From positions 1 to 37,773 of IMG/VR virus record IMGVR_UViG_3300048074_000106: a stretch of 37,773 nt of DNA; one strand, written 5' to 3'. The notes under the pieces were generated by a model. The model was not told the DNA's origin and searched no databases. It saw nothing but the letters and a program-made list of their open reading frames with translations. Position numbers and translations under genes: made by a program. Shown here one piece after another: positions 1 through 37,232 of the stretch (position 1 is the stretch's first letter; each line of letters begins with the position of its first letter). Origin of the DNA: a virus (lineage: Duplodnaviria > Caudoviricetes).

Positions 1-127
1 CGAACTCATCGAAGAGCCCGATGCCCACCTTCCTCGTCTTGTTCCCCTTGCGCCGCTCCTGGGTAAGACGCGTGCCAGCGTGGAACGCCTTGAGGCCCAT
101 GCCGGCGAAGGTGTACTCGCGAGAGAC
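1..127. repeat. Terminal direct repeat, left copy (circular assembly overlap)
   Basis: Bases 1-127 are identical to 37647-37773, and an ORF reads in frame across the join. 127 is a common assembler k-mer length. Confidence 0.97.
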
Positions 128-535
128 AGGTTCGGCCTTGGAGGGTCGAGCCCTGCCCGTAAGCGGGATCGCGACTGACTGCGCGCCCTGCCTGGGTTCC
201 TTGGTGCCACCGCGTTCGAAGATGGAAAGGAGTAGACGCCTCTGGCTCTTCTGGTCCGCTGCCTGAGCTACAAAGACTTCCGAGAACGGGCGCTGTTGCT
301 TGACAGAGGCGAACGGCTTGATCCTGGCCGCTACCCCGCCTGGGCGCTCGGGGGTGCCAAAGAAGAAGCGCGGGTTCCGAATAATGAACCGATCTCGCAT
401 GCTCGCGAACTCGGCCTGCTGAATGCGCTTGGCCGTGTTGTTGACCGCGTTGACGGTCGCATAGGCCAGGCGCTTCTCACCATTGCGCATGCGCAGGAGC
501 AGCTGGGTGTTGTCGATCGCGACATCGATCCTCAT
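1..535 (-). CDS. gpZ-like tail completion/neck protein, 5' part; continues across the join to 37363 (272 aa total)
   Basis: ATG at 535 overlaps the stop of the upstream HTH gene (ATGA). It reads MRIDVAIDNTQLLLRMRNGEKRLAYATVNAVNNTAKRIQQAEF...EYTFAG, then in frame into MGLKAFHAG of the 37363..37746 ORF. It is basic, with an 'A..AVN.TA' helix as in gpZ-like proteins. Confidence 0.7.
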   Translation of the reverse strand, partial: MRIDVAIDNTQLLLRMRNGEKRLAYATVNAVNNTAKRIQQAEFASMRDRFIIRNPRFFFGTPERPGGVAARIKPFASVKQQRPFSEVFVAQAADQKSQRRLLLSIFERGGTKEPRQGAQSVAIPLTGRARPSKAEPVSREYTFAGMGLKAFHAGTRLTQERRKGNKTRKVGIGLFDEF

Positions 536-804
536 GGGCGCCTCCCCTTGCGGGTAGCAATGGCCTGCATCTCGTCGCGGTGGGAGTAGATGGCATTCAT
601 GCTGAGCCGCCCTGAGGAGGCGGTGACGAGAGCCCGGGCGCGGTCCGGCCGTGGGGTTGTGCCGGCGAGCCAAGAGTAGACGGCTCCCGGCGTGACGGCC
701 GTGTTGGGGTCACGGCCGAGCTCCTCGACAATAGAGGCTACTGTCATCCGGCTCACCCAGCGTCCGAACCGGGTGCGCCACCGAAGTTGTTCCCGTCGAT
801 ACAC
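532..804 (-). CDS. Cro-like helix-turn-helix protein, 90 aa; candidate late regulator
   Basis: GTG at 804 follows an AGGAGG SD. VASIVEELG...VTPGAVYSWLAGTTPRPDRARAL is a Cro/XRE-type HTH pattern. Confidence 0.7.
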   Translation of the reverse strand: MYRREQLRWRTRFGRWVSRMTVASIVEELGRDPNTAVTPGAVYSWLAGTTPRPDRARALVTASSGRLSMNAIYSHRDEMQAIATRKGRRP

Positions 805-880
805 GCAAGCTGCCCTCCTGGACCTCGCATGATCGATGGGGGAAGTCTCAGCAGGCGCTCGATTCCCTGACGCCCACGCC
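805..880 (-). promoter_or_regulatory. Structured 5' leader with an SD-sequestering hairpin; target of the putative trans-acting RNA
   Basis: By hand, GC(G)CCU-G-CUG-A-GACUUC pairs with GAGGUC-CAG-G-AGGGC and buries AGGAGG. The minus-strand RNA over 835-863 is complementary to the minus-strand RNA over 30520-30539 and 30468-30477. Confidence 0.6.
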
Positions 881-884
881 ACGC

Positions 885-914
885 ATGGTACTCACAACTT
901 CAACACGTCGGCAA
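885..914 (-). promoter_or_regulatory. Sigma70-like promoter for the HTH-gpZ-terS-terL operon
   Basis: Minus strand reads TTGCCG-N18-TACCAT just after the tail gene stop at 919. Confidence 0.6.
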
Positions 915-4774: not shown

Positions 4775-5850
4775 GGCCTGAATCCATCCACGCTGAAGGT
4801 GAGGGCTTGGCTGGCGATGACGAGGCTCTCCCACGTGAGATCCTCGTCGGCGGATAGGCGCCCAATGACCAACGGCAGCACGGTCGTCGCCGGAGCGACC
4901 CAGGTGTTACGCAGCCCGAGGCTGAGGACGATGCGATCGGCCTGCACCTCAGCGATGCGCTGGGCCTCCCAGTGGTAGGGATCCGTCCAGAGCAGGACGA
5001 GGCCGTCTACCTCGAAGGGGAGGTTGGTGGTGTCGCAGAACACCTCGACCGCGTCAGCGAGAGCGTTTGCAACGAGCGGGGTCTGGAACTGCCACCGGCC
5101 GACGCCGAAGGCACGCGCCTGATTGCCGTGAAGGATTGCGTTGGCCATCTGAGCATCGCGCAGCTCGTTCAGGAGCACGGAGTAGGTGATGGACCCCACC
5201 GGTACGGCGCGCAGCTGGATGCGCTGCTCGTCGCCCCTAAACGCCTCGATGATGTCCGTCAGGTAGCCGAACCGCTCGACGACCGGGTCGGCCATGTTGG
5301 GAGGGAACGGGAATGGGATCAGTCGAAACCCGAGCAGGTGGAGGTTCGTGCCAGCCTCATCCACGCCGACGAAGACCCACGTGACCAGGTTGTCGATGAG
5401 CGGGTCACCTTCGGCGGAGACCTCGACCACGTAGACCTGGGAGTCGGAGGCGGGGAACCAGACCGGCTGCCCCAGGGTGTCGATCACAGAGACCCCGGGC
5501 GGGCCCTCCACAGTGATCTCCTGGAGCTGCTTCGCGCGCGACATGAAGGCGTTCCAGACCTCGACCTCGAGGGTCTGCTCAGAGACCACCGCGCCGAGGT
5601 CACTCCGGCGAGGGATGATGTGGATGCGGTCCAGGATCGCGAGGTCTGCCGCATGACTCCAGACGGCATTGAAATCGTAGGCGTCCGGACGCGGGTCGGC
5701 GAGGGCTGCTGAGAGCGCCGTAGAGGCATCCGGCGAGATCGCGAAGCTTTCGGCTGATGGCAGTGGCAGGACGGCGTTCGCGAGGTTGTCAGAAGCGTCC
5801 GGCCCGGTTGGGAGGGCAAGTGGCCCCGGAGCCAGGATTGCGATCGACAC
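4771..5850 (-). CDS. Virion structural (tail tip) protein, 359 aa
   Basis: DRIHIIP..DLGAVVSEQT..VEVWNAF and ERFGYLTDII...GDEQRIQLRAVP resemble D3112-type tail proteins. Confidence 0.78.
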   Translation of the reverse strand: MSIAILAPGPLALPTGPDASDNLANAVLPLPSAESFAISPDASTALSAALADPRPDAYDFNAVWSHAADLAILDRIHIIPRRSDLGAVVSEQTLEVEVWNAFMSRAKQLQEITVEGPPGVSVIDTLGQPVWFPASDSQVYVVEVSAEGDPLIDNLVTWVFVGVDEAGTNLHLLGFRLIPFPFPPNMADPVVERFGYLTDIIEAFRGDEQRIQLRAVPVGSITYSVLLNELRDAQMANAILHGNQARAFGVGRWQFQTPLVANALADAVEVFCDTTNLPFEVDGLVLLWTDPYHWEAQRIAEVQADRIVLSLGLRNTWVAPATTVLPLVIGRLSADEDLTWESLVIASQALTFSVDGFRP

Positions 5851-14042: not shown

Positions 14043-15953
14043 CTAGCTGATGGTGGCCCCGGTCGCCTTCACGAAGGACTCGCCGTGACGGAGCACGACG
14101 TCGCCCATCTGGAAGGAGGTGACCACGATGAGGCCCTTGCCGGCCTGGGTGTACGGGTCGACGACCAGCTCCATCGCGTCCCACAGGCCGATGAGCAGAT
14201 CGTTCCAGTCGCCGAAGATGAGCCCGTGCTTCGTGCTCGCCTCAAGCGTCTTCGAGACCTGGCTGGTGCTGACAGCCCGGTAGCCGGCCATGAAGCCGTC
14301 CGCGATGGGACCGGTCCAGATCATCTTCGAACCGGCCGCGCTCGCCTCGAGCGTGCACATCATGAGCGACGCCATGAGCGGCGTGGTCATGTAGCCGGGG
14401 CTGACGAGACGGACGTTCTTGTCCGCCGCGAGCCCCTGCATGCCCACGATCTTGGCGTGGGTGGGGACACCACCCATGGCCTGGGGCTGAACGTCGGGGG
14501 CGGTGTAAATGCCGGTCGGCTCGCCGTTGACCCCGCTGCCGTGCAGGCCAGCCAGGTCGATGGCCAGCGCGTGACCCATCGCCAGCTCATCCCGGACCAT
14601 CGCCTCGACGTCGATCGAGGACTGGGCCAGGAGCTGCCGCGAGTAGCTCGTCGCGCCCTGCATGGTCTTCGGGGTGAGGAAGACCTGGCCGGTGGCGACG
14701 TCGCTCTTGGTGACGTCGGCGGCCGGGTTCTCCCCGACCCAGTAGACCGTCATCCCGGCGGTCTTCTTCGGGAAGGTCAGCGGCCCGGTGAGACCGGTCA
14801 GGAGACGGGCGCCCATCTGGACGACCATGGCTCGCGCGCGCAGCAGATCGATCAGCTCGCCCGGCGAGTCCTGAACGAACTCGGCTCCGGCGCCGGCGGT
14901 CTTGGAGTCGAGCGCGCGGGTGCCGAGGCGCATGGGGACGAGGATCCCGCCTCGACTCTGGTAGTTCGCCGGCAGGCCGCGGGCGAGCTCCTTGTGCAGC
15001 TCGCCTTCGAGCCCGTCGAATCCGGAGCGCTCGCCCTTGGCGGCCTCGGTCGACATGCGCAGCGCGCGCGTGTAGGAGTACCTCGCCAGGTCCTTGTCCG
15101 GCATGCCGGTGCGCTCGGCCGCGGGCTGGCCGGTGCCCGCGGTCTTGCGGGCCTTCACGATCTCGTACCCCACCTGCTGCGGAGTCAGGCCCTGGCCGAT
15201 CCACTCGGAGGCGCGCTCGCTCAGGTTGTTGTTCTGGCAGATGGCCAAGATCTCCTGGACCTCGGCGTTGCGGTCGCGCTTGGGCTCGGGTGCGGAGGCC
15301 GGCGGGGGCTGGACCTCGACAGCGCTACGGGCGCCATTGGGCTGGGGGGTGGTTTCGGGCTCGGGCACCATGGTTCGCTCCTCCTGTGGGACGGCCTGGC
15401 CGTCCGATTCGATCTCGACTTCGAACTCCTCGCGGTTGTCTCCGCGCTCGAGGCCGACCGAGACATCGGCGGCCAGTGGCAAGATGTGGACTTCGACCGG
15501 CATCCATCGGGTGGCGTTCCAGGTGTCAGGCTTTCCGCCTTCTCCCTTCACGACCTTCGCCTTCATGACCCGGTAGCCGAGGGAGACCTGGGTGCGGATA
15601 CGATCCTGCACGTCCCCCTCAACCTCCTGGCCCTTGGCGCTGCGCGAGAACCGGACGTCGCCCTTGAGCTTCCCGCCCTCGATGCGACCGTTCTCGAAGA
15701 TCCCGACCTGGGTTCCCCAGTGGCCACCGATCTGATCGGCTGCCATGACGGAGAGCCCGCCCTTCAGGTAGCGCTTGTCGATCGCTCCTTCGTCGTGGCT
15801 CAGAACTTCCATTCCGAACCAGCGTTCGATGGCGACCTCGCTCGATACGCTGAAGGTGTACTTCCGCTGATCGCCTTCGGCCCTGCCTTCCGGCGGGAGC
15901 TCCGGGCCTTCGAAGGCTCGGTGCAGCATCGGCAGTTTGCGCGGATCGGGCAT
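14043..15953 (-). CDS. Fused HK97-type prohead protease / major capsid protein, 636 aa
   Basis: N-terminal SVSSEVAIERWFGMEVLSH...VRFSRS...VSLGYRV (protease); C-terminal WVGEN, SYSRQLLAQSSIDVE and LIFGDWNDLLIGLW...VDPY (capsid). Confidence 0.93.
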   Translation of the reverse strand: MPDPRKLPMLHRAFEGPELPPEGRAEGDQRKYTFSVSSEVAIERWFGMEVLSHDEGAIDKRYLKGGLSVMAADQIGGHWGTQVGIFENGRIEGGKLKGDVRFSRSAKGQEVEGDVQDRIRTQVSLGYRVMKAKVVKGEGGKPDTWNATRWMPVEVHILPLAADVSVGLERGDNREEFEVEIESDGQAVPQEERTMVPEPETTPQPNGARSAVEVQPPPASAPEPKRDRNAEVQEILAICQNNNLSERASEWIGQGLTPQQVGYEIVKARKTAGTGQPAAERTGMPDKDLARYSYTRALRMSTEAAKGERSGFDGLEGELHKELARGLPANYQSRGGILVPMRLGTRALDSKTAGAGAEFVQDSPGELIDLLRARAMVVQMGARLLTGLTGPLTFPKKTAGMTVYWVGENPAADVTKSDVATGQVFLTPKTMQGATSYSRQLLAQSSIDVEAMVRDELAMGHALAIDLAGLHGSGVNGEPTGIYTAPDVQPQAMGGVPTHAKIVGMQGLAADKNVRLVSPGYMTTPLMASLMMCTLEASAAGSKMIWTGPIADGFMAGYRAVSTSQVSKTLEASTKHGLIFGDWNDLLIGLWDAMELVVDPYTQAGKGLIVVTSFQMGDVVLRHGESFVKATGATIS

Positions 15954-15959
15954 CGCTGA

Positions 15960-16060
15960 GTTCTCCTTCGCGGTGATTCTTGCGGCTCACACCGAGGCCC
16001 GCTCAAGTCCAATCTAATTAGACTTGGAATCCCGCGTGGAGCGGTGCCACCGTGACGCGC
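15960..16060. promoter_or_regulatory. Divergent late promoter region with dyad symmetry
   Basis: CAAGTC-N11-GACTTG (16004-16026) overlaps the perfect palindrome TCTAATTAGA (16013-16022). It is an AT-rich island between divergent genes. Confidence 0.6.
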
Positions 16061-16606
16061 ATGAGCAACCTCGATCTCACCGCTCTGCCCGACTCTTTTC
16101 CCGCCGGCACGACCGTCATCTACACCAAGTCGTTCACGAACTTCTCGCCCACCGAATGGACGCTGAAGCTCTATTTGGCAGGACCGGACACGCTGAACGT
16201 GACTGCTGTCGCTTCCGGCGAGAGCTACGTGGTAACGATCCCGGCAACTTCAACGGCGGCTTCGCCGGCTGGTTCGTATCACTGGGTCGAGCGCGTCGAG
16301 AAGACGGGCGTTGTCTGTGATCTCGCCTCCGGACTCGTGATCCTCACCCCGAATCTGGCGACGGCCACCGACGGATCGCTCCAGGACTGGGCTGAGAAGG
16401 TGCTGCCCCTTGTCGAGGCGGCGATCGCGGGACGGATCCCGGCCGGGATGGAGAGCTATCAGATCGCTGGGCGGGCGGTGGCCAAGATCCCCATCCGCGA
16501 GCTCATGGCGCTGCGCGGCCAGCTCAAGAGCATGGTCGCCCAGGGCCAGAGCCGCACCCGCATCTCCCGTCCCATCCACATCAAGTTCCCCCAGACAGGG
16601 GCGTGA
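16061..16606 (+). CDS. Head-tail adaptor (gpW-like C-terminus with an N-terminal beta domain), 181 aa
   Basis: ESYQIAGRAVAKIPIRELMALR; lies directly before a lambda-type portal. Confidence 0.8.
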   Translation: MSNLDLTALPDSFPAGTTVIYTKSFTNFSPTEWTLKLYLAGPDTLNVTAVASGESYVVTIPATSTAASPAGSYHWVERVEKTGVVCDLASGLVILTPNLATATDGSLQDWAEKVLPLVEAAIAGRIPAGMESYQIAGRAVAKIPIRELMALRGQLKSMVAQGQSRTRISRPIHIKFPQTGA

Positions 16607-16609
16607 CCC

Positions 16610-18124
16610 ATGAAGCGACCGTTCCGGACCAGGATGACTCGCGCTTGGCGCGAGCTGCAGGGCAAGCGCTCCTCCGACTACAAGGGCGCCGAGATGAACC
16701 GCCTCCTTCTCGACTGGGTGGCGCAGTCGCTCACCCCCGACGAGGAGATCCGCGGATCGGTGCGCAAGCTGCGCGCCCGCGCGCGCGAGCTCTCCCGCAA
16801 CGAGGGCTACGCCAAGCAGTATCTCCGGCTCCTCACCACCAACGTGATCGGGCCCCATGGGTTCCGGATGCAGGCCCAGGTGATGAAGGGCGATGTCTTC
16901 GACCGGGAAACGAACACCGCGATCGAGCGCGCCTGGCTCCGCTGGTCTGAGGGACGGGTCACGGTGGACGGAACCCTCACGCTACGTCGGCTTCAGAAGG
17001 TGTTGCTGCGCTCGGTTGCCCGCGACGGCGAGGTCTTCGTCCGGCGCTGGCTCTCGTTCGACGGGAACCCCTTCGGCTATGCGCTCCAGGCGATCGACGC
17101 CGACATGCTCGATGAAAACCTCAACCGCGCCCGCGGCAATGGCGTGAACGAGATTCGGATGGGCGTCGAGGTGGACGGCGTCGGCCGGCCCCTCGGCTAC
17201 TGGTTCTTCAAGAACCCCGAGGATCGGGTGCTCAACACCGGGACCGCCGGCCGGATCTTCGTGACTGCCACTGAGGTCCTCCACCTCTACGATGCCGACC
17301 GCCCAAATCAGACCCGCGGCGTGACGTGGCTTCATCCGATCATGGTCCCGATGAAGATGCTCGGGGGGTACGAGGAGGCGGAGCTGGTCGCCGCCCGCAC
17401 CGCGGCGGCGAAGATGGGCTTCATCCAGTCCCCCGACGGAGTCGGCGACCCCGGCGACATGAACGAGCCGGCCGAGATGGAGGCGGCCCCCGGCACCATG
17501 GAGCGCCTGCAGGCCGGCGAGACGTTCCAGCCCTGGGACCCCCAGCACCCGACCACGGCCTTCCCCATCTTCGTAAAGTCCCTGCTTCGCAAGATCTCCG
17601 CCGGCCTGGGCGTCTCCTACAACGCCCTCGCTAACGATCTCGAGGGAGTCAACTACTCCTCGATGCGCTCCGGCCTTCTCATCGAGCGCGACCACTGGAA
17701 GGACGTTCAGGTCGACTGGATCGAGGACTTCCTGCAGCCCGTCTTCGAGGACTGGTTGAACATGGCGCTCCTCACCGGGGCGCTCGTCCTCGACTCGATG
17801 GATGCGACCCGATATGCCAACGAGGTGGTTTGGAAGCCCCGCGGCTGGCAGTGGGTGGATCCGGCGAAGGACATCGCTGCGATCGAGAAGAGCATCGAGC
17901 TCGGACTCACCTCGCGAACCAAGGCCTGCGCCGAGTCGGGCGACGACTACGAGGAGAACCTGCTCAACCTCGAGCGCGAGGAGCGCATGGCCAAGGAGAA
18001 GGGGATCTCGATCCAGGGCAAGCCTACCACCGCGCCCCTTCAACCGCCCCCCGGAGATCCGGAGGACGACGACGATTCCGAAGAGAGCCAGCGGACCCTG
18101 CTGGCTGGGAGGTTCCGCCAATGA
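16610..18124 (+). CDS. Portal protein, lambda family
   Basis: LRARARELSRN, RDGEVF, MGVEVDGVGRPLGYW, QTRGVTW, DLEGVNYSSMRSG and W.PRGWQWVDPAKD. Confidence 0.96.
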   Translation: MKRPFRTRMTRAWRELQGKRSSDYKGAEMNRLLLDWVAQSLTPDEEIRGSVRKLRARARELSRNEGYAKQYLRLLTTNVIGPHGFRMQAQVMKGDVFDRETNTAIERAWLRWSEGRVTVDGTLTLRRLQKVLLRSVARDGEVFVRRWLSFDGNPFGYALQAIDADMLDENLNRARGNGVNEIRMGVEVDGVGRPLGYWFFKNPEDRVLNTGTAGRIFVTATEVLHLYDADRPNQTRGVTWLHPIMVPMKMLGGYEEAELVAARTAAAKMGFIQSPDGVGDPGDMNEPAEMEAAPGTMERLQAGETFQPWDPQHPTTAFPIFVKSLLRKISAGLGVSYNALANDLEGVNYSSMRSGLLIERDHWKDVQVDWIEDFLQPVFEDWLNMALLTGALVLDSMDATRYANEVVWKPRGWQWVDPAKDIAAIEKSIELGLTSRTKACAESGDDYEENLLNLEREERMAKEKGISIQGKPTTAPLQPPPGDPEDDDDSEESQRTLLAGRFRQ

Positions 18125-20999: not shown

Positions 21000-21508
21000 G
21001 CATCGAGCGCGTGACCGAGCGCGTACTGACGGGACTCATCGAAGAGGCACGGCAACCTGCTCTCATGCTCATCGCGTGCGCCGCAGACCAAGGCGCCGCG
21101 TTGCGAGTCACCCGCACCTTCGATACCTGGGCAACCCAGGCGGCCTACTACGCCCAGGGTCGTCAGCCTCTCGACCAGGTCAACGCGCTGCGCGCCGGCG
21201 TTGGGCTCCCCCCCATCACCGCGAAGCAGAACGACTACACGATTTCGGATGCGCGACCAGGTCGCAGCTGGCACAACTGGTGTCGCGCTCTCGACGTCGT
21301 CCCCGTCGACGAAGCCACGTCCCCCGACTTCCGGGATCCGGATAACCCACTCTGGAGCGCCCCCTACTGGGTGGCCATCGGCGAACTCGGAGAGGCACTG
21401 GGCTTCGAGTGGGGCGGTCGATGGGGCGACAACCCCCACTTTCAATGGACCCGCGGCGCAACCCTCGCTGGCTTGCTCGCGCAGTTTCCGCAGGGGATCC
21501 GCATATGA
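20996..21508 (+). CDS. Endolysin, M15 family peptidase (CwlK/Ply500-like), 170 aa
   Basis: YAQGR, SWHNWCRALD (SxHxxxxAxD) and EWGGRWGDNPHFQ. Confidence 0.88.
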   Translation: MSIERVTERVLTGLIEEARQPALMLIACAADQGAALRVTRTFDTWATQAAYYAQGRQPLDQVNALRAGVGLPPITAKQNDYTISDARPGRSWHNWCRALDVVPVDEATSPDFRDPDNPLWSAPYWVAIGELGEALGFEWGGRWGDNPHFQWTRGATLAGLLAQFPQGIRI

Positions 21509-22416
21509 GAACGCTGGTCGCAAGCGGTGGCGCGTTCAAGGGCGCCGTGCAGGTTGGGATGATCGATGGCCTCTGCGGGCTCGAGTGGCTCAAGCAGCGC
21601 AACGCGGCAGGCCCCATCCCCGGATCCTGGGTGCTTCCCTGGCAGCTCTACCTCGGCGTCTCGACCGGCAGCCTCCAGGCCTCTATTGCCGCGTGCGGCC
21701 GCTACTCCGATGTGGAGAAGCTCAAGGCTCGCTGGTCTGGCCTAAAGGGGATCGGCGACATCATGAAGATGCGTAGCTGGGGCTGGCTCCGCCTCGCTCC
21801 GATCGTGGCCGGCGGCTCCCTCTACACCTTCGAGCCTCTCCGCGAGATCCTCCAGAAAGACCTGAGTGACGAGGACATCGAGCGGATCCGTCGTTACGGC
21901 AATCGGTTCCTGTGCGGCTACACCGACATGCAGACGCTCACCTACAAGGTAGCTGACGACCGCAACCCGAACATCCGCACATGGATCGAGGCGAGCTGCT
22001 CGGTGCCCGGCTATCACGAGGGTGTGTTTGGCCGCTACTTCGACGGTGGGGTGCGCAACATCACCCCTCTCGCGGACGCGATCCACGCCGGCGCCACCGA
22101 GATCGACGTGCTCCTGGCTTCCCCGCTGAAGCCGACAACGAAGGCCGTTCCCAAGACCGTGTTTGGCCGCGTGGGGCGCGCGATCGACGGGCTCACCAAC
22201 GAGATCATGCGCGACGATCTGCGGGAGGTGGCGCGGCGCAATCTCTACCCGCGGCCAGGCGATCGCGAGATCAAGATCCGCGTTTACATGCCCAGCGAGC
22301 CGGTCAACGCCTCATGGTGCTTGAAGCCCGGCGACTATGCCCGGATGTTCCAGATCGGCTACGCGCTGGCGGCGCACCCGCTGACGGTGGCCCAGGCCCT
22401 TGGAGAGGAGATCTGA
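21505..22416 (+). CDS. Patatin-like phospholipase, 303 aa
   Basis: ATG overlaps the endolysin stop (ATGA). Gly-rich SGGAFKG, nucleophile GVSTG, ASCSVP and catalytic DGG are all intact. Confidence 0.92.
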   Translation: MRTLVASGGAFKGAVQVGMIDGLCGLEWLKQRNAAGPIPGSWVLPWQLYLGVSTGSLQASIAACGRYSDVEKLKARWSGLKGIGDIMKMRSWGWLRLAPIVAGGSLYTFEPLREILQKDLSDEDIERIRRYGNRFLCGYTDMQTLTYKVADDRNPNIRTWIEASCSVPGYHEGVFGRYFDGGVRNITPLADAIHAGATEIDVLLASPLKPTTKAVPKTVFGRVGRAIDGLTNEIMRDDLREVARRNLYPRPGDREIKIRVYMPSEPVNASWCLKPGDYARMFQIGYALAAHPLTVAQALGEEI

Positions 22417-25152: not shown

Positions 25153-25802
25153 CACCTCACCCCGTTCCTGAAGTGCGCCTCGAGGACGATGCGGGCCTCC
25201 TGCACCAGACGGAACTCCTCCGCCTTGCCCCCCTGGTCGGGGTGGGTACGACGCACAGCGACGCGCCAGGCGTCGATCATCCGGGGCTCCCCGACAAGGA
25301 CGTCGGCCGGACGCCTCTCGCTCAGCCTGGCGAGGATCTCGGCCGCCTCGCGGTAGGTCTTCACCTGGACCTCGTTCACCGGCCCCGGCAGTGCGCGCCA
25401 CCCGCGGTACTGTTCCCCCCGGCGGGCGGTGCCGTACCGGTCGATCCGTCGCAGATCGTGAAGCGTCAGAGCGATTGCGCGGACGTTGTCCTGCCAGCCC
25501 GAGAAGCGATCGCACGCGAGCTTGACCGGCCCGTGCATGGACTCGAAGGCGATGATGACCCCCGGATGCGACGGCCTCGCCGTGGCGCGCGGGCGAGATC
25601 CGTCCTGCAGGATCTCGTTCTCGCTCACCGCGAGCATGAGCACGATCTGCTTCGCGCGTAGCGCGTCCAGCTCGCGGCGAAGGATCCCCAGGGTGTTGGT
25701 CCAGCTCGCCCGGAAGATCGCCACCTTCCGCTTCTCCTGCGGCGTCTGAACCCCCGGCCAAAGGTCGATGGGACGACACGTGACGTTGAGGTTGCCGAAC
25801 AT
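25152..25802 (-). CDS. Phage DnaJ-like (C-terminal J-domain) protein, 216 aa
   Basis: HPGV, CDRF..WQDNVRAIALTL..LR.IDRYG....EQYRGWRALP and RRTHPDQGG..EEF. Confidence 0.85.
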   Translation of the reverse strand: MFGNLNVTCRPIDLWPGVQTPQEKRKVAIFRASWTNTLGILRRELDALRAKQIVLMLAVSENEILQDGSRPRATARPSHPGVIIAFESMHGPVKLACDRFSGWQDNVRAIALTLHDLRRIDRYGTARRGEQYRGWRALPGPVNEVQVKTYREAAEILARLSERRPADVLVGEPRMIDAWRVAVRRTHPDQGGKAEEFRLVQEARIVLEAHFRNGVR

Positions 25803-27507: not shown

Positions 27508-27557
27508 GCACACCCCCCTTTGTTCCTACCGCCGAGGCCTCGCGCCACGGCGCCTAC

Positions 27558-30402: not shown

Positions 30403-30454
30403 CTCAACTCCTCGCCCGAGCCACCCCTGAGCCCAGGCACAGCGCCCGTCTTCG

Positions 30455-30571
30455 CCGCCGGTCGAAGATCGAGCGCCCCCCTTTGCATCCCCGGCGGTTC
30501 GCGGTCCTGGCTGAACTTGCTGCTGAGACTTCCCCCATCTCTAGCCCCGTCGTCCTACCATCGGACCGCGA
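30455..30571 (-). ncRNA. Putative two-hairpin trans-acting antisense/activator RNA
   Basis: Lies in a 175-bp intergenic gap. Stems UCGCGGUCC/GGACCGCGA and CCGCCGG/CCGGCGG each enclose a block complementary to the leader at 835-863. Confidence 0.6.
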
Positions 30572-30577
30572 GTACTC

Positions 30578-30802
30578 TCAACGAACAGGCGCTGCCAACT
30601 GGGGCAGCGCCTCCCCCAACCAGAGCAGGAAGAGCGCGAGGAACAGCACGAAGGCCACCTGAAAGCAGAAGCCCCAGCGGACCTCGATGCCCATCTCCCA
30701 TCGAAGCCAGCGCCCCGCGGCGCGCGCCGCGCGGGCGAGCAGCTCGTCCACCTTCACCTGACGATCAAGATCTCCAGGTTCCGTCCAGCTCTGCATGCTC
30801 AT
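30578..30802 (-). CDS. Small membrane protein, 74 aa
   Basis: C-terminal hydrophobic helix; start overlaps the upstream stop (ATGA). Confidence 0.6.
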   Translation of the reverse strand: MSMQSWTEPGDLDRQVKVDELLARAARAAGRWLRWEMGIEVRWGFCFQVAFVLFLALFLLWLGEALPQLAAPVR

Positions 30803-31047: not shown

Positions 31048-31316
31048 GGTCTCTCCCGCCGCTCATCGAGGATGCTGGTGTCGAAGAGGGCGTCCGGCCG
31101 GATCCGAAACGCGTTCACCATCGCCTGGATGAAGCGGTAGGACGGCCCCCCACGGCCGGAGAGCCAGACCTTCACCGCGTTCTCCGAAGCCCCGATCGCG
31201 CCTGCAAACTGACCGGGCGTAAGGCCTGTGGCCTCCAAGTGCGCCTGGAGCTTGCGGCTGCAAAGAGTCTGCGAGGACTCAGTTTGTGCCAATCCGACCA
31301 CCTGATGCTTGCCCAT
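31044..31316 (-). CDS. Cro-like XRE HTH regulator, 90 aa
   Basis: ATG at 31316 follows GGAGG. GLTPGQFAGAIGASENAVKVWLSGRGGPS; divergent from the repressor. Confidence 0.85.
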   Translation of the reverse strand: MGKHQVVGLAQTESSQTLCSRKLQAHLEATGLTPGQFAGAIGASENAVKVWLSGRGGPSYRFIQAMVNAFRIRPDALFDTSILDERRERP

Positions 31317-31319
31317 GTC

Positions 31320-31420
31320 TAACCCTCCGCGCCTAAGATCGTCCTCATAAGACCAAAAATCAAGCCCCAAAATGGTAGGACGGGCTATTTATTTTGTGGG
31401 TCTGGTAAGATGTTGCGCGG
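31320..31420. promoter_or_regulatory. cI/cro genetic switch region
   Basis: AT-rich gap between divergent HTH genes with four TARGAY half-site-like words, the dyad GTCCT-CAT-AAGAC and an extended -10 TGGTAAGAT toward cI. Confidence 0.65.
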
Positions 31421-31433
31421 GGAGGCGTTGAGA

Positions 31434-32111
31434 GTGAAGGAAACCGGGGATAGGCTGTACCGATTCCGGACCCTTGCCCGGCTTAGCCGCGCGGCGCTCG
31501 CAGAGATGTCCGGCGTCTCAGCGACTTCCATTCAGCGAATCGAAGCCGGCCGAGACATGACGATCGACACGGCCCGCGCTCTCGCCAAGGCGCTCGGCGT
31601 TTCTCTCGCCGAACTGACCGGCGAGGAAGCCCCCACCGAGCCGCCTCCGCGCAGAGAACGGGCCGTCATGGCCCCCTCCCCAGTAGTCGGCTATGTGGCT
31701 GATCGCGCTCCCGCTGGTGGCAGACCCATCCCGGTGATCTCCTGGGTTTCCGCAGGCGACGGTCTCGAGTACACCGACCAGGGCTACCCACCCGGTGTGA
31801 GCGACGAGTGGGTCGACCGCCCTGCAAACGTCCGCGATCGCCGGGCCTACGCGGTGCGCGTGGTCGGTGATTCGATGAGCCCCGTGATTCTGGCCGGCGA
31901 CGTGGTCGTCCTCGTGCACGATCACGAGGCCTCAGCCAACGACCTGGTCCTCGTGAAGCTCAAGTCCGGGGAGGTCTTCCTGAAGCTCCTGAGTCGGCAC
32001 GATGGGCACTTCGTGCTAGTGTCCGCCAACCCCCTGTATCCCCCATTGGTGGTCGCGCTCGACGAGCTGATGTTCCCCCCTCGCAAGGTGGCTGCGATCC
32101 TGAAGAGGTGA
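31434..32111 (+). CDS. CI-like repressor (XRE HTH + S24 peptidase)
   Basis: N-terminal HTH, cleavage site IPVISWVSAG, VVGDSMSP (Ser) and VFLKLL (Lys). Start taken at the GTG after GGAGG; 31410 and 31428 are alternatives. Confidence 0.93.
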   Translation: MKETGDRLYRFRTLARLSRAALAEMSGVSATSIQRIEAGRDMTIDTARALAKALGVSLAELTGEEAPTEPPPRRERAVMAPSPVVGYVADRAPAGGRPIPVISWVSAGDGLEYTDQGYPPGVSDEWVDRPANVRDRRAYAVRVVGDSMSPVILAGDVVVLVHDHEASANDLVLVKLKSGEVFLKLLSRHDGHFVLVSANPLYPPLVVALDELMFPPRKVAAILKR

Positions 32112-34684: not shown

Positions 34685-36637
34685 CTACTTCCAACCGTCC
34701 ACCCAGCCGCCACGCTTCCGCGCGCGCGGCCGCGGCGCGCTCGCTACCGGCGCCTCGGGAAGCGGCTCCTCTGGAGAATCAACTTGGGAGGCGAGCCGCG
34801 CGGCGCGCTCCGGAAGGGAGCGAATCACCGGCTGCCCCAGGATGTGCAGCGCGGCCAGGCAGTAGACCTCGAGGTCGAGCGCTTCGTTGCGCTCCCGCAA
34901 CTTGATCCACTCCCGCACCCGGCCCCGGTTCTTCACCCACTTCCAGATCGCCTTCTCGGCCGTGAGCTGCTCGAGGTACTCGACGTCGACCCAGTCGGGG
35001 AGGTGGACGAACCCAGGCCCCTTCGACTTGATCCGCAGGCGGGAGAGGATGATGTCCTTGGCGGTGTCGACGCAGAGGGTGAAGAGCTTCGCGTGGTAGC
35101 GGTTGTGGGTGGTCGGCCGCTTGGGCACGACCGGCTTCCCCTTCTCGTTCCCGCCGCGGACTGCGAAGACCCGACGGTGGAGTCGGGCCCGGCAGAACTT
35201 GTAGACCTCCTCGGTGTGGTGACCGCCGGAGTCGACGGTGACGCAGGAGATCTTGATCTTGCGGCCGCTCTCGTGAACGAACTCCTGGGTGAGGAACTTG
35301 TCGAGCTCGAGCCAAGTGCTCTCGTGAACCGGATCCCCGTGCACCTGATGGAAGGCGATCAGCCACGACTCCTCGCCGGCGCCGTACCCCTTCACCTGAG
35401 CCTCGATGCGATCGCCTTGGACGTCGACCGCTGCGACGAGGATTCCCACGCCGGCGGGGACCTCGGCGACGTAGCTCTCGAGCCGGCCGACCAAGCTGTC
35501 GGCGTCGAGCGAGTCTCCGCGCTCCTCCCAGGTCTCCCCGAGGACGGTGTTCACCCAGGTCTGTAGGCGGAACGGATCCTCCTTCCCTTCAATGAACTCG
35601 GACACGCATTCAGCCCAGGATTTCCACCCGAGCGGAGAGTAGAGGGCGGAGAGGTGGAACCCGACCGTCCGCCCCGTGCTCTTCGCCGTGGGCCGCCACT
35701 CCCCACCGGCGAGCATCAGCGTCTTGTACCGTTCCTCAATGAGGCGCTCGCACGCCACGCAGGCCAGCTTCGCCGTCTCTGGGCGAGCCTCTTCCCACCG
35801 GATGTTCTCCCAGCGGATCCAGTCGAAGTGGCCACAGTGGGGGCAGGCCACGAAGTAGCGGCGCTGGTCCGAGGCCAGGAACTCCTTCTCGATGCGGGAG
35901 ACGCCCTTCATGGTGGGCGTCGACGTCATGAGGATCTTGCGACGAGGGAAGGTGGCGGTGCGTTTCTCGGCGAGGGAGACCGGATCCCCTTCGCTCTCCA
36001 CGTTTCCGGGATAAGCGTCTACCTCGTCCATGAAGAGAAATCTCGCCGGCATGCGACGGAGCCCCTTCGCTGAGTTCGCCCCCGTGATCGCCAGGATCCC
36101 ACCGGGGAACTCCTTCATGAGGGTCGTGTTCCCCGAGTCCCGCGATCGAGCCTCCTTCACCAGTGCGCGTAGCGCCGGCGTCTCCTCGATCATGGGAGAG
36201 AGGCGCTGCTTGCTCTCCGCCCGGGCAATGTCGACGGTCGGTTCCACGAACAGGACCGGACCCGGAACGTGGTGGATGATGTAGCCGATCGCGTTGTTTA
36301 TCGCTTCCGTCTTGCCCACCTGGCTCCCGGCCATGAAGACCACTCGCCGGGCACGGTTGTGAGCCGACATGCAGTCCATCGGCTCCCGGAGGTAGGGCGC
36401 CCTCGAAGTGCGCCAGGGCCCCGGCTCGCTCGAGGTCATCGAGCTCAGGACGCGGTGCTCATCCGCCCACTGGCTGACCGTGAGGACCGGGTCCGGCGCG
36501 AAGCCGCGGGCGGCGGCGTCGAAGACGATGAATCGGGCGCGCCGACGTTGGTCGTCTCCTTCCGGATCGTCTTCGACAAGGCCGAGCTCAGCTGGTTCAG
36601 AGCTCCCCGGATCGCGTCTTCGAGGATGTCGTGGCAC
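34685..36637 (-). CDS. Terminase large subunit, lambda GpA family
   Basis: VSQWADEHR, EPGPWRTSRAPYLREPMD, Walker A SQVGKT, Walker B FMDEVD, STPT, CPHC, VDVQ, DSGG and RNEALD. Confidence 0.97.
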   Translation of the reverse strand: MPRHPRRRDPGSSEPAELGLVEDDPEGDDQRRRARFIVFDAAARGFAPDPVLTVSQWADEHRVLSSMTSSEPGPWRTSRAPYLREPMDCMSAHNRARRVVFMAGSQVGKTEAINNAIGYIIHHVPGPVLFVEPTVDIARAESKQRLSPMIEETPALRALVKEARSRDSGNTTLMKEFPGGILAITGANSAKGLRRMPARFLFMDEVDAYPGNVESEGDPVSLAEKRTATFPRRKILMTSTPTMKGVSRIEKEFLASDQRRYFVACPHCGHFDWIRWENIRWEEARPETAKLACVACERLIEERYKTLMLAGGEWRPTAKSTGRTVGFHLSALYSPLGWKSWAECVSEFIEGKEDPFRLQTWVNTVLGETWEERGDSLDADSLVGRLESYVAEVPAGVGILVAAVDVQGDRIEAQVKGYGAGEESWLIAFHQVHGDPVHESTWLELDKFLTQEFVHESGRKIKISCVTVDSGGHHTEEVYKFCRARLHRRVFAVRGGNEKGKPVVPKRPTTHNRYHAKLFTLCVDTAKDIILSRLRIKSKGPGFVHLPDWVDVEYLEQLTAEKAIWKWVKNRGRVREWIKLRERNEALDLEVYCLAALHILGQPVIRSLPERAARLASQVDSPEEPLPEAPVASAPRPRARKRGGWVDGWK

Positions 36638-37155
36638 TGTGCCTCCTCAGTTGTCGCCGCCATGGCGGAAGCCAGACGTGCCGGCAGGGTGTTGAAGGCG
36701 TCGCGCGCCGCGCGGCAGGCCTCGTAGATGTCGCCGGCGAGCGTCTCTCCCCGGATAACCAGGCCGGCCTCGCGCTCGTAATTGAGGCGGGCCATCTTGG
36801 CCAGGAACTTCTCGCGTTCCCCGCGGGACTTCGCGTACGAGCTGAGGGGCTCCGGGTCGTGACCGTTGCCGGGTGCGGGCTCATCCCCCGCCGGCAGCGC
36901 TGCCGCCCGCCTCGGCCTGGTCGCCCCCATCGGCGTCGAAGGAGCGCCTGGTTTCCGGCGCAACTTGGGGTCCCCGGTGACGGAGTTCAGGGGCTTGGAG
37001 TGGTCCGTCCGCTCCGCCCACTGCTTGTCCGCCCGGGCGGAGTCGATCTTCCCGTCCTTCCGCCTGGTGATCCTGCCGTCCGCGATCGCCTTCTGCACCG
37101 CTGTGTGGGAGACACCCCGGTGCTTGGCATAGGCGCGTACTGACAGAAGAGGCAT
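36445..37155 (-). CDS. Terminase small subunit (Nu1-like), 236 aa
   Basis: HTH LSVRAYAKHRGVSHTAVQKAI..GRI; AKMARLNYEREAGLV...ARDAF..LPARLA. Confidence 0.88.
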   Translation of the reverse strand: MPLLSVRAYAKHRGVSHTAVQKAIADGRITRRKDGKIDSARADKQWAERTDHSKPLNSVTGDPKLRRKPGAPSTPMGATRPRRAAALPAGDEPAPGNGHDPEPLSSYAKSRGEREKFLAKMARLNYEREAGLVIRGETLAGDIYEACRAARDAFNTLPARLASAMAATTEEAQCHDILEDAIRGALNQLSSALSKTIRKETTNVGAPDSSSSTPPPAASRRTRSSRSASGRMSTAS

Positions 37156-37232
37156 CTCAGAGGGTGGCGGCAATCAGGGCGACGGCAACCCCTTGCGGAA
37201 ACTTGTCTTGCGTCACCGACGCTAGAGAAGGA

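Follow-up and report, generated by a model that had tools for sequence, protein, structure and literature searches.

A predicted structured RNA in a phage early operon with a conserved complement in the leader of a distant, putative helix-turn-helix gene

The minus-strand early operon of a temperate phage contains a real, uncatalogued structured RNA that has a conserved complement in a distant leader. The DNA analyzed, termed here the window, is a 37,773-nucleotide stretch (IMG/VR record IMGVR_UViG_3300048074_000106, Caudoviricetes), a genome of 65% G+C with a 127-nt terminal repeat. Nucleotides 30520-30539 and 30468-30477 are exact reverse complements of 835-854 and 854-863, respectively. The two blocks are 42 nt apart in the early RNA and both use target base 854, so the target is contiguous and 29 nt long. 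All of these relationships had been noted in a preliminary description of the sequence, and all were confirmed. Comparison with a related phage makes it probable that the early RNA pairs in trans with the leader of a small helix-turn-helix (HTH) gene. That such pairing activates translation of this gene, as the folding models suggest, has in our judgment slightly less than an even chance. The full proposal, in which a two-step, self-locking RNA key took the role that a sigma factor probably plays at the late regulator of sister phages and makes the early-to-late step RNA-only, is more doubtful.

The early operon includes ParB-like, replication and resolvase genes, and the genome also has a serine integrase. 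There are two divergent virion operons, and the tail operon extends through a small gene and a minor tail gene to terS and terL. This gene order is unusual, in that portal and capsid genes diverge (14043-18124) and the terminase genes come after the tail operon (34685-37173). Because the same order occurs in G001, G002, G011, G012, G013 and G016, it is not an assembly error. A patatin-like phospholipase gene (21409-22416, plus strand; Pfam E 7.8e-19) adjoins the endolysin gene. The features discussed below are collected in Table 1.

Table 1. Positions of features in the window and of the two-part motif in sister phages
Feature	Position	Strand	Remarks
Minor tail protein gene, phrog_1924	1-535	-	extends across the terminal repeat to 37363
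Target gene, 90-aa Cro/XRE-like HTH protein	532-804	-	unannotated; stop overlaps start of next gene
Long leader hairpin (predicted)	760-873	-	buries Shine-Dalgarno (814-819) and GTG start (802-804)
Target	835-863	-	block-1 site 835-854 and block-2 site b 854-863; 5' arm of outer leader helix
Site a	869-881	-	at inferred transcript start; weak block 2 partner here, strong in G001
Sigma-70-like promoter (inferred)	885-914	-	-35 at 909-914, 18 nt, -10 at 885-890; read by eye
Palindrome	16004-16026		between divergent head/tail (-) and portal (+) operons
Helix 3 (state B)	30442-30476	-	30476-30463 paired with 30454-30442, 13 bp
Block 2	30468-30477	-	10 nt complementary to 854-863
Linker	30477-30490	-	invariant 14 nt, within 38-nt identical run from 30507
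Stem 2, 5' arm (state A)	30491-30497	-	invariant; 7/7 pairs in both phages
Hairpin 1	30499-30571	-	9-bp basal stem, variable middle, apical stem-loop
Block 1	30520-30539	-	complement of 835-854, 20 nt; G001 keeps its first 16 nt (30524-30539)
Upstream hairpin	30587-30612	-	last codons of upstream 74-aa gene
cro-like gene and cI-like repressor gene	31063-32111	- and +	switch that would control the RNA-bearing early operon
Terminase small and large subunit genes	34685-37173	-	downstream of target gene
Two-part motif, G011	39670-39707; 25223-25262		after sigma-70-like gene; before HTH gene
Two-part motif, G022	near 5412 and 19556		after sigma-70-like gene; before HTH gene

The minimum-energy fold of 30450-30578 (minus strand, z -2.35) contains stem 1, an apical hairpin and stem 2. 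Stem 1 joins 30571-30563 with 30507-30499, and stem 2, one base away, joins 30497-30491 with 30461-30455. The apical hairpin exposes a 7-nt purine loop (30536-30530) that belongs to block 1, as the preliminary description had proposed for a G-rich loop. Its further proposal that each block is enclosed by its own stem holds for stem 1; stem 2 prevails in the fold only if the RNA stops near 30454, and for the long RNA forms of both the window phage and its relative G001 the best fold is a competing helix, helix 3. Helix 3 moves the 3' limit of the element from the 30455 given earlier to 30442. Stem 2 and helix 3 cannot both form fully, because the 3' arm of stem 2 (30461-30455) is enclosed as the loop of helix 3. 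Geometry rules out a full pseudoknot that would join stem 2 to the whole 13-bp helix 3, as there are no linker bases, whereas a partial pseudoknot is possible.

All 13 pairs of helix 3 are kept in both phages, with four double-sided changes and one that is one-sided. Controls in which the helix was slid gave 0-2 double-sided changes, and a shuffle control, which draws on two sequences only, gave 30/500. RNAalifold predicts helix 3 unaided. Judged by these substitutions, helix 3 is the best evidence for selection on a minus-strand RNA structure. From the modeled folds we infer a conserved two-state switch that would hide block 2 until docking or trimming. The linker has no conserved base-pairing partner that could be found in the window phage or in G001, and it may serve for protein binding or tertiary contacts. 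A search with the linker pattern gave 16 viral matches, one of which is the G001 RNA; the rest, and a single genome match, are unrelated.

Upstream of the element, the hairpin at 30587-30612 has a z of -3.26 in the window, and a similar stem in G001 (z 0.86) is not above shuffles. This hairpin is a possible processing or pause signal. A U-rich stretch comes right after it in the window and is absent in G001. Rfam gave no match at the gathering score across the window; with E up to 10 over four loci there were three matches, none of them on the element, so the comparison with C4 models proposed in the preliminary description had no hit there.

G001 is the only relative found to have both sites. 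It is colinear with the window at 72-85% identity (about 77%), and both sites are at homologous places, whereas divergence is seen in the middle of hairpin 1 and in the downstream flank. The basal and apical pairs of hairpin 1 are identical in the two phages. In block 1, 16 nt are identical at both the RNA and the leader, and of the four extra pairs two survive. The expectation that complementarity is kept in relatives is thus borne out in G001, although the invariant core shows no compensatory change. Block 2 of G001 no longer fits site b and instead pairs over 14 bp, two of them G-U, with the first bases of the leader. When all same-strand ungapped partners of the G001 leader are ranked, block 1 is first and block 2 third. 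In ungapped runs, block 2 pairs with its own leader at -18.3 versus -14.4 kcal/mol with the other leader, and at -29.6 versus -15.3 kcal/mol, and shuffled loops equal the native pairing in 2/500 and 0/500 cases. Gapped duplexes on the window leader give no own-loop preference (-24.6 for the G001 loop versus -24.3 for the native loop).

The conservation of both sites in G001, and the fact that block 2 keeps a partner through G-U pairs, support trans pairing and with it the earlier idea of a trans-acting RNA that links early transcription to the packaging side, an idea that had missed both the competing helix and the Cro/XRE-like gene. Block 2 is weaker as independent proof, because helix 3 in cis also explains its variable part, and some of its fit to the leader may be incidental.

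No third member was found by DNA patterns, neighbor proteins or a covariance model. The model (R1) gave two strong matches among 76 sources, a single copy each in the window and in G001, and none in 40 further records, most of which are fragments. Genes neighboring the element have 0-1 relatives each. G002 and G003 have a target copy only, and a scan with nine other leaders gave no RNA counterpart. The RNA predicted from the L020 leader was sought at about 230 loci, of which 120 were read, and no counterpart was present among the 25 most GC-rich loci inspected. Several candidates were rejected. The 20-nt match of L002 and L016 is a chance match in an unrelated record, and the best antisense match in G013 falls in a coding region. 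A third match of the RNA, between 30551-30561 and the cro-cI region (31372-31382), is not kept in G001, and 27513-27522, a G-rich repeat, serves as ribosome site for the ParB-like gene. G001 also carries, at 39379-39468, a partial second copy (90 nt) of the terminal part of the terminase large subunit gene.

Both loci had been described as intergenic and the target as the leader of the packaging operon. They are indeed non-coding, but the target belongs to the 5' leader of an overlooked gene, and the operon begins with this 90-aa HTH gene, followed by the tail gene, terS and terL, rather than with terminase directly. The target lies 31-59 nt upstream of the GTG start at 804. Leader and first codons form one long predicted hairpin (z -2.41; -2.24 in G001), with the target in the outer 5' arm and the ribosome site inside. 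The leader consensus with G001 keeps the inner hairpin, with one-sided changes only. A promoter scan found none at 885-914, where the promoter read by eye falls below the scan threshold; the same spacing occurs in G001, and L020 and L192 have promoter-like boxes there. A 25-codon frame (753-830, minus strand) begins inside the leader hairpin and overlaps the HTH gene; it is open in G001 and is without its own ribosome site.

The HTH product has nine database matches, the window's own included, in which the motif columns are invariant, and in many related viral loci a homolog immediately precedes the same tail gene. One record, G016, has two copies of the gene (23039 and 31311). The protein was not found in GTDB genomes, has no match in Pfam, PHROG or NCBIfam and none by Foldseek at E 0.001, and its atlas scores are under 0.9. 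Its structure model (pLDDT 87.9) best matches a prophage Cro (Z 6.7, rmsd 2.2, 60 aligned), and most top rows are XRE/Cro proteins. The product is likely DNA-binding, with a weak resemblance to Cro/XRE. A Q-like protein, reported before as missing, was not found among the open reading frames scanned, and the HTH gene behind the target is likely the protein link to late genes. The palindrome at 16004-16026 is common to the window, G001, G013, G016 and G002, and is a candidate late-regulator site for the HTH protein. At the matching place, G011 and G020 have a different, longer palindrome.

In the phages that carry the RNA, the computed cost of opening the ribosome site is 28.8 and 26.5 kcal/mol. 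Among 12 relatives in which the RNA was not found, the corresponding gene gives 6.4-18.5 kcal/mol, and 20 other starts of this genome give 7.9-19.7 kcal/mol. The promoters and starts of these relatives were chosen by eye, and most of the relatives are fragments. If the target sites are blocked, the cost drops to 17.8-17.9 kcal/mol, a gain that depends on the folded length (2.9 to 11 kcal/mol here and 4.6 to 9.3 in G001), and the inner leader hairpin stays closed after predicted RNA binding. Activation is favored, because the leader is predicted to bury the ribosome site and blocking the target sites restores ordinary levels. Seed binding is computed to be far stronger on the nascent leader (-10.2 versus -4.6, and -9.9 versus -1.5 in G001).

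The sister phages G011 and G022 have a sigma-70-like gene (0.97 atlas score to a cluster with Sigma70_r4_2 in 22%; Pfam E 0.021), and right behind it lies a two-part motif of fixed spacing, which recurs before the HTH gene. Of 36 distinct regions upstream of the HTH gene, 14 contain this motif, which is probably a phage-sigma promoter. Neither the motif nor the sigma-70-like gene was found in the window or in G001. The presence of both in sisters and their absence here suggest that the HTH gene needs an early activator. A likeness of the sister motif to the linker complement was considered and dropped, the motif being a sense-oriented DNA repeat.

The same pairing might carry the opposite sign, with the early RNA repressing the leader by duplex cleavage or termination and so delaying packaging or removing a late-gene repressor. 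Cro/XRE proteins are mostly repressors, and the HTH fold resembles them. A duplex of 16-29 bp could conceivably serve as a nuclease substrate, and the C4 and P4 CI RNAs are described as repressing (PMC5320573, PMC4825925). However, the sites are 30 or more nt upstream of the start, the ribosome site is predicted to be closed already without the RNA, and repression would also lower the coupled terminase genes. We regard repression as fairly unlikely.

If the RNA instead activates the HTH gene, events might proceed as follows. The active species would be a structured RNA of ~130 nt, likely cut from the cI-controlled early transcript and reaching from 30571 to about 30442. In the lysogen, a housekeeping-type promoter would make the leader, whose hairpin covers the Shine-Dalgarno sequence and start, and the gene would be off. 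After induction, the purine loop of hairpin 1 would dock on the pyrimidine run of the leader, best on a leader still being made, and pairing would extend to 16-20 bp. Block 2 would then be drawn out of helix 3, with stem 2 forming instead, and the freed block would lock onto site b in the window phage or site a in G001. The outer half of the leader hairpin would be stripped, permitting translation of the HTH gene and of the coupled tail and terminase genes. Finally, the HTH protein would likely act at the palindrome between the divergent virion operons. If this is true, the early-to-late transition would gain an RNA-only route, in which an early RNA activates a distant regulator. The contrast with sigma-driven sisters would show one regulatory slot filled by either protein or RNA, and the RNA-leader pair would be a natural toehold-like translation switch.

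The hairpins could also act only in cis, as an antiterminator or as a processing or stability element, with the leader match a relic or by-product. The put RNA of phage HK022 is about 70 nt long, occurs twice per genome behind two early promoters and binds RNA polymerase, at the β' zinc-binding domain, to suppress termination (PMC9378689). The element resembles put in having two adjacent stem-loops, separated by a single base, within an early operon, although this applies to state A and state B differs. Moreover, all double-sided covariation found is intramolecular, and the invariant 14-nt linker is without a partner. On the other hand, a role in cis alone leaves unexplained the 16 invariant nt at both places and the second pairing in both phages. 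Unlike put, the element is present in a single copy per genome and measures about 130 nt, and put is without a distant complement. A purely cis-acting element is, in our estimate, unlikely.

Direction is a separate matter, since a short leader RNA from the 885-914 promoter might flip the switch between states A and B in the early transcript and confer immunity like that of P4 CI. The proposed two-state switch, which is conserved, does reside in the early transcript upstream of replication genes, and short late-leader RNAs can act in trans, as reported for StxS (PMC7547250). Yet no terminator was found in 400-1200 or behind helix 3, the two phages have different genes downstream of the element, and it is the leader that has the buried ribosome site. 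This reversal seems distinctly unlikely.

It is very improbable that the repeat is a DNA site present twice, such as an operator or recombination site. The sister phages do repeat a DNA motif before the HTH gene and in the early region, but here the core is non-palindromic and, unlike the sister motif, has its two copies oriented oppositely relative to transcription, and colinearity of G001 with the window leaves no inversion between the sites. Because block 2 of G001 pairs with the leader through G-U pairs, that pairing works only as RNA on the minus strand and block 2 is no DNA repeat, which agrees with the earlier preference for RNA.

No inverted repeat in the genome is longer than the 20-mer, and the next in length is 15 nt. 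Among 200 dinucleotide shuffles, inverted repeats with arms at least 50 nt apart reach 20 nt in two cases and 16 nt or more in 81, and in a leader-only test that was post hoc, none of 200 gives a match longer than 14 nt. Although the former frequencies allow for a chance match within two independently conserved hairpins, both copies are non-coding (a loop and a leader), a second block follows and everything recurs in G001, which makes coincidence the least probable account of all.

Seven RNA runs, available as assembled contigs, include early genes on either side of the element, and in five of the seven there are contigs ending at 31314-31319, near the cro start. The listed contigs leave 30443-30652 uncovered, and a DNA run breaks there too, so this gap is uninformative; assembled contigs can show neither the presence of a small RNA nor its strand and level. 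Two of the RNA contigs stop at the base of helix 3, at 30438 and 30442, and one of these has an adapter at its end. This is at most a weak hint.

Bipartite guide RNAs such as the IS110 bridge RNA and TIGR RNAs carry guide segments that read opposite strands, with a cognate enzyme encoded nearby. In contrast, both blocks here match the same strand, and no bridge-RNA or TIGR enzyme family was present among the open reading frames scanned (48, 24 and 14 in three scans, part of the total).

As far as the sources cover them, phage RNAs that regulate their own genes mostly repress, and do so at the same locus or operon. The lambda aQ and P22 sar antisense RNAs repress, and aQ is proposed to act in cis (PMC12197685). 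Like these, the early RNA would place a regulator of the lytic cascade under the control of a phage RNA, but its predicted sign differs. P4 CI RNA has complementary sites, seqA and seqC, in its own transcript and terminates its own operon (PMC4825925). Similarly, block 2 has a cis partner directly downstream, but the main complement of the element is in a distant leader. The parts of the open literature covered here, including the phage sRNA review (PMC12197685) and the StxS report (PMC7547250), contain no case of the kind proposed.

The C4 antisense RNA of phages P1 and P7 is cut from a longer transcript, with processing by RNase P, and two separated segments read one target (PMC5320573). In build the early RNA is somewhat like it, as it would use two separated segments for one target region and presumably is processed from a longer transcript. 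Both phages have the two blocks, yet only state A leaves block 2 unpaired. Whereas C4 has three stem-loops (P1-P3) under one closing stem in about 77 nt, the element has two consecutive hairpins in 117-130 nt and no Rfam covariance-model match. One C4 loop lies on the ribosome-binding site, whereas here the sites end at 835 and the Shine-Dalgarno sequence is at 814-819. Also unlike C4, the target is in another operon and activation, not repression, is predicted.

IsrK of the Gifsy-1 prophage binds a translationally closed leader in trans, opens it and starts a regulator cascade (PMC4825925). IsrK has its own promoter and acts on its own read-through transcript. The RNA described here is inside the early operon, and its best partner, 835-863, is about 8 kb away on the circle. 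The computed opening cost falls by about 3-11 kcal/mol, with the inner hairpin remaining. Nevertheless, in the proposed mechanism a closed leader would be opened in trans in this phage as well, and IsrK is the nearest system in proposed mode of action.
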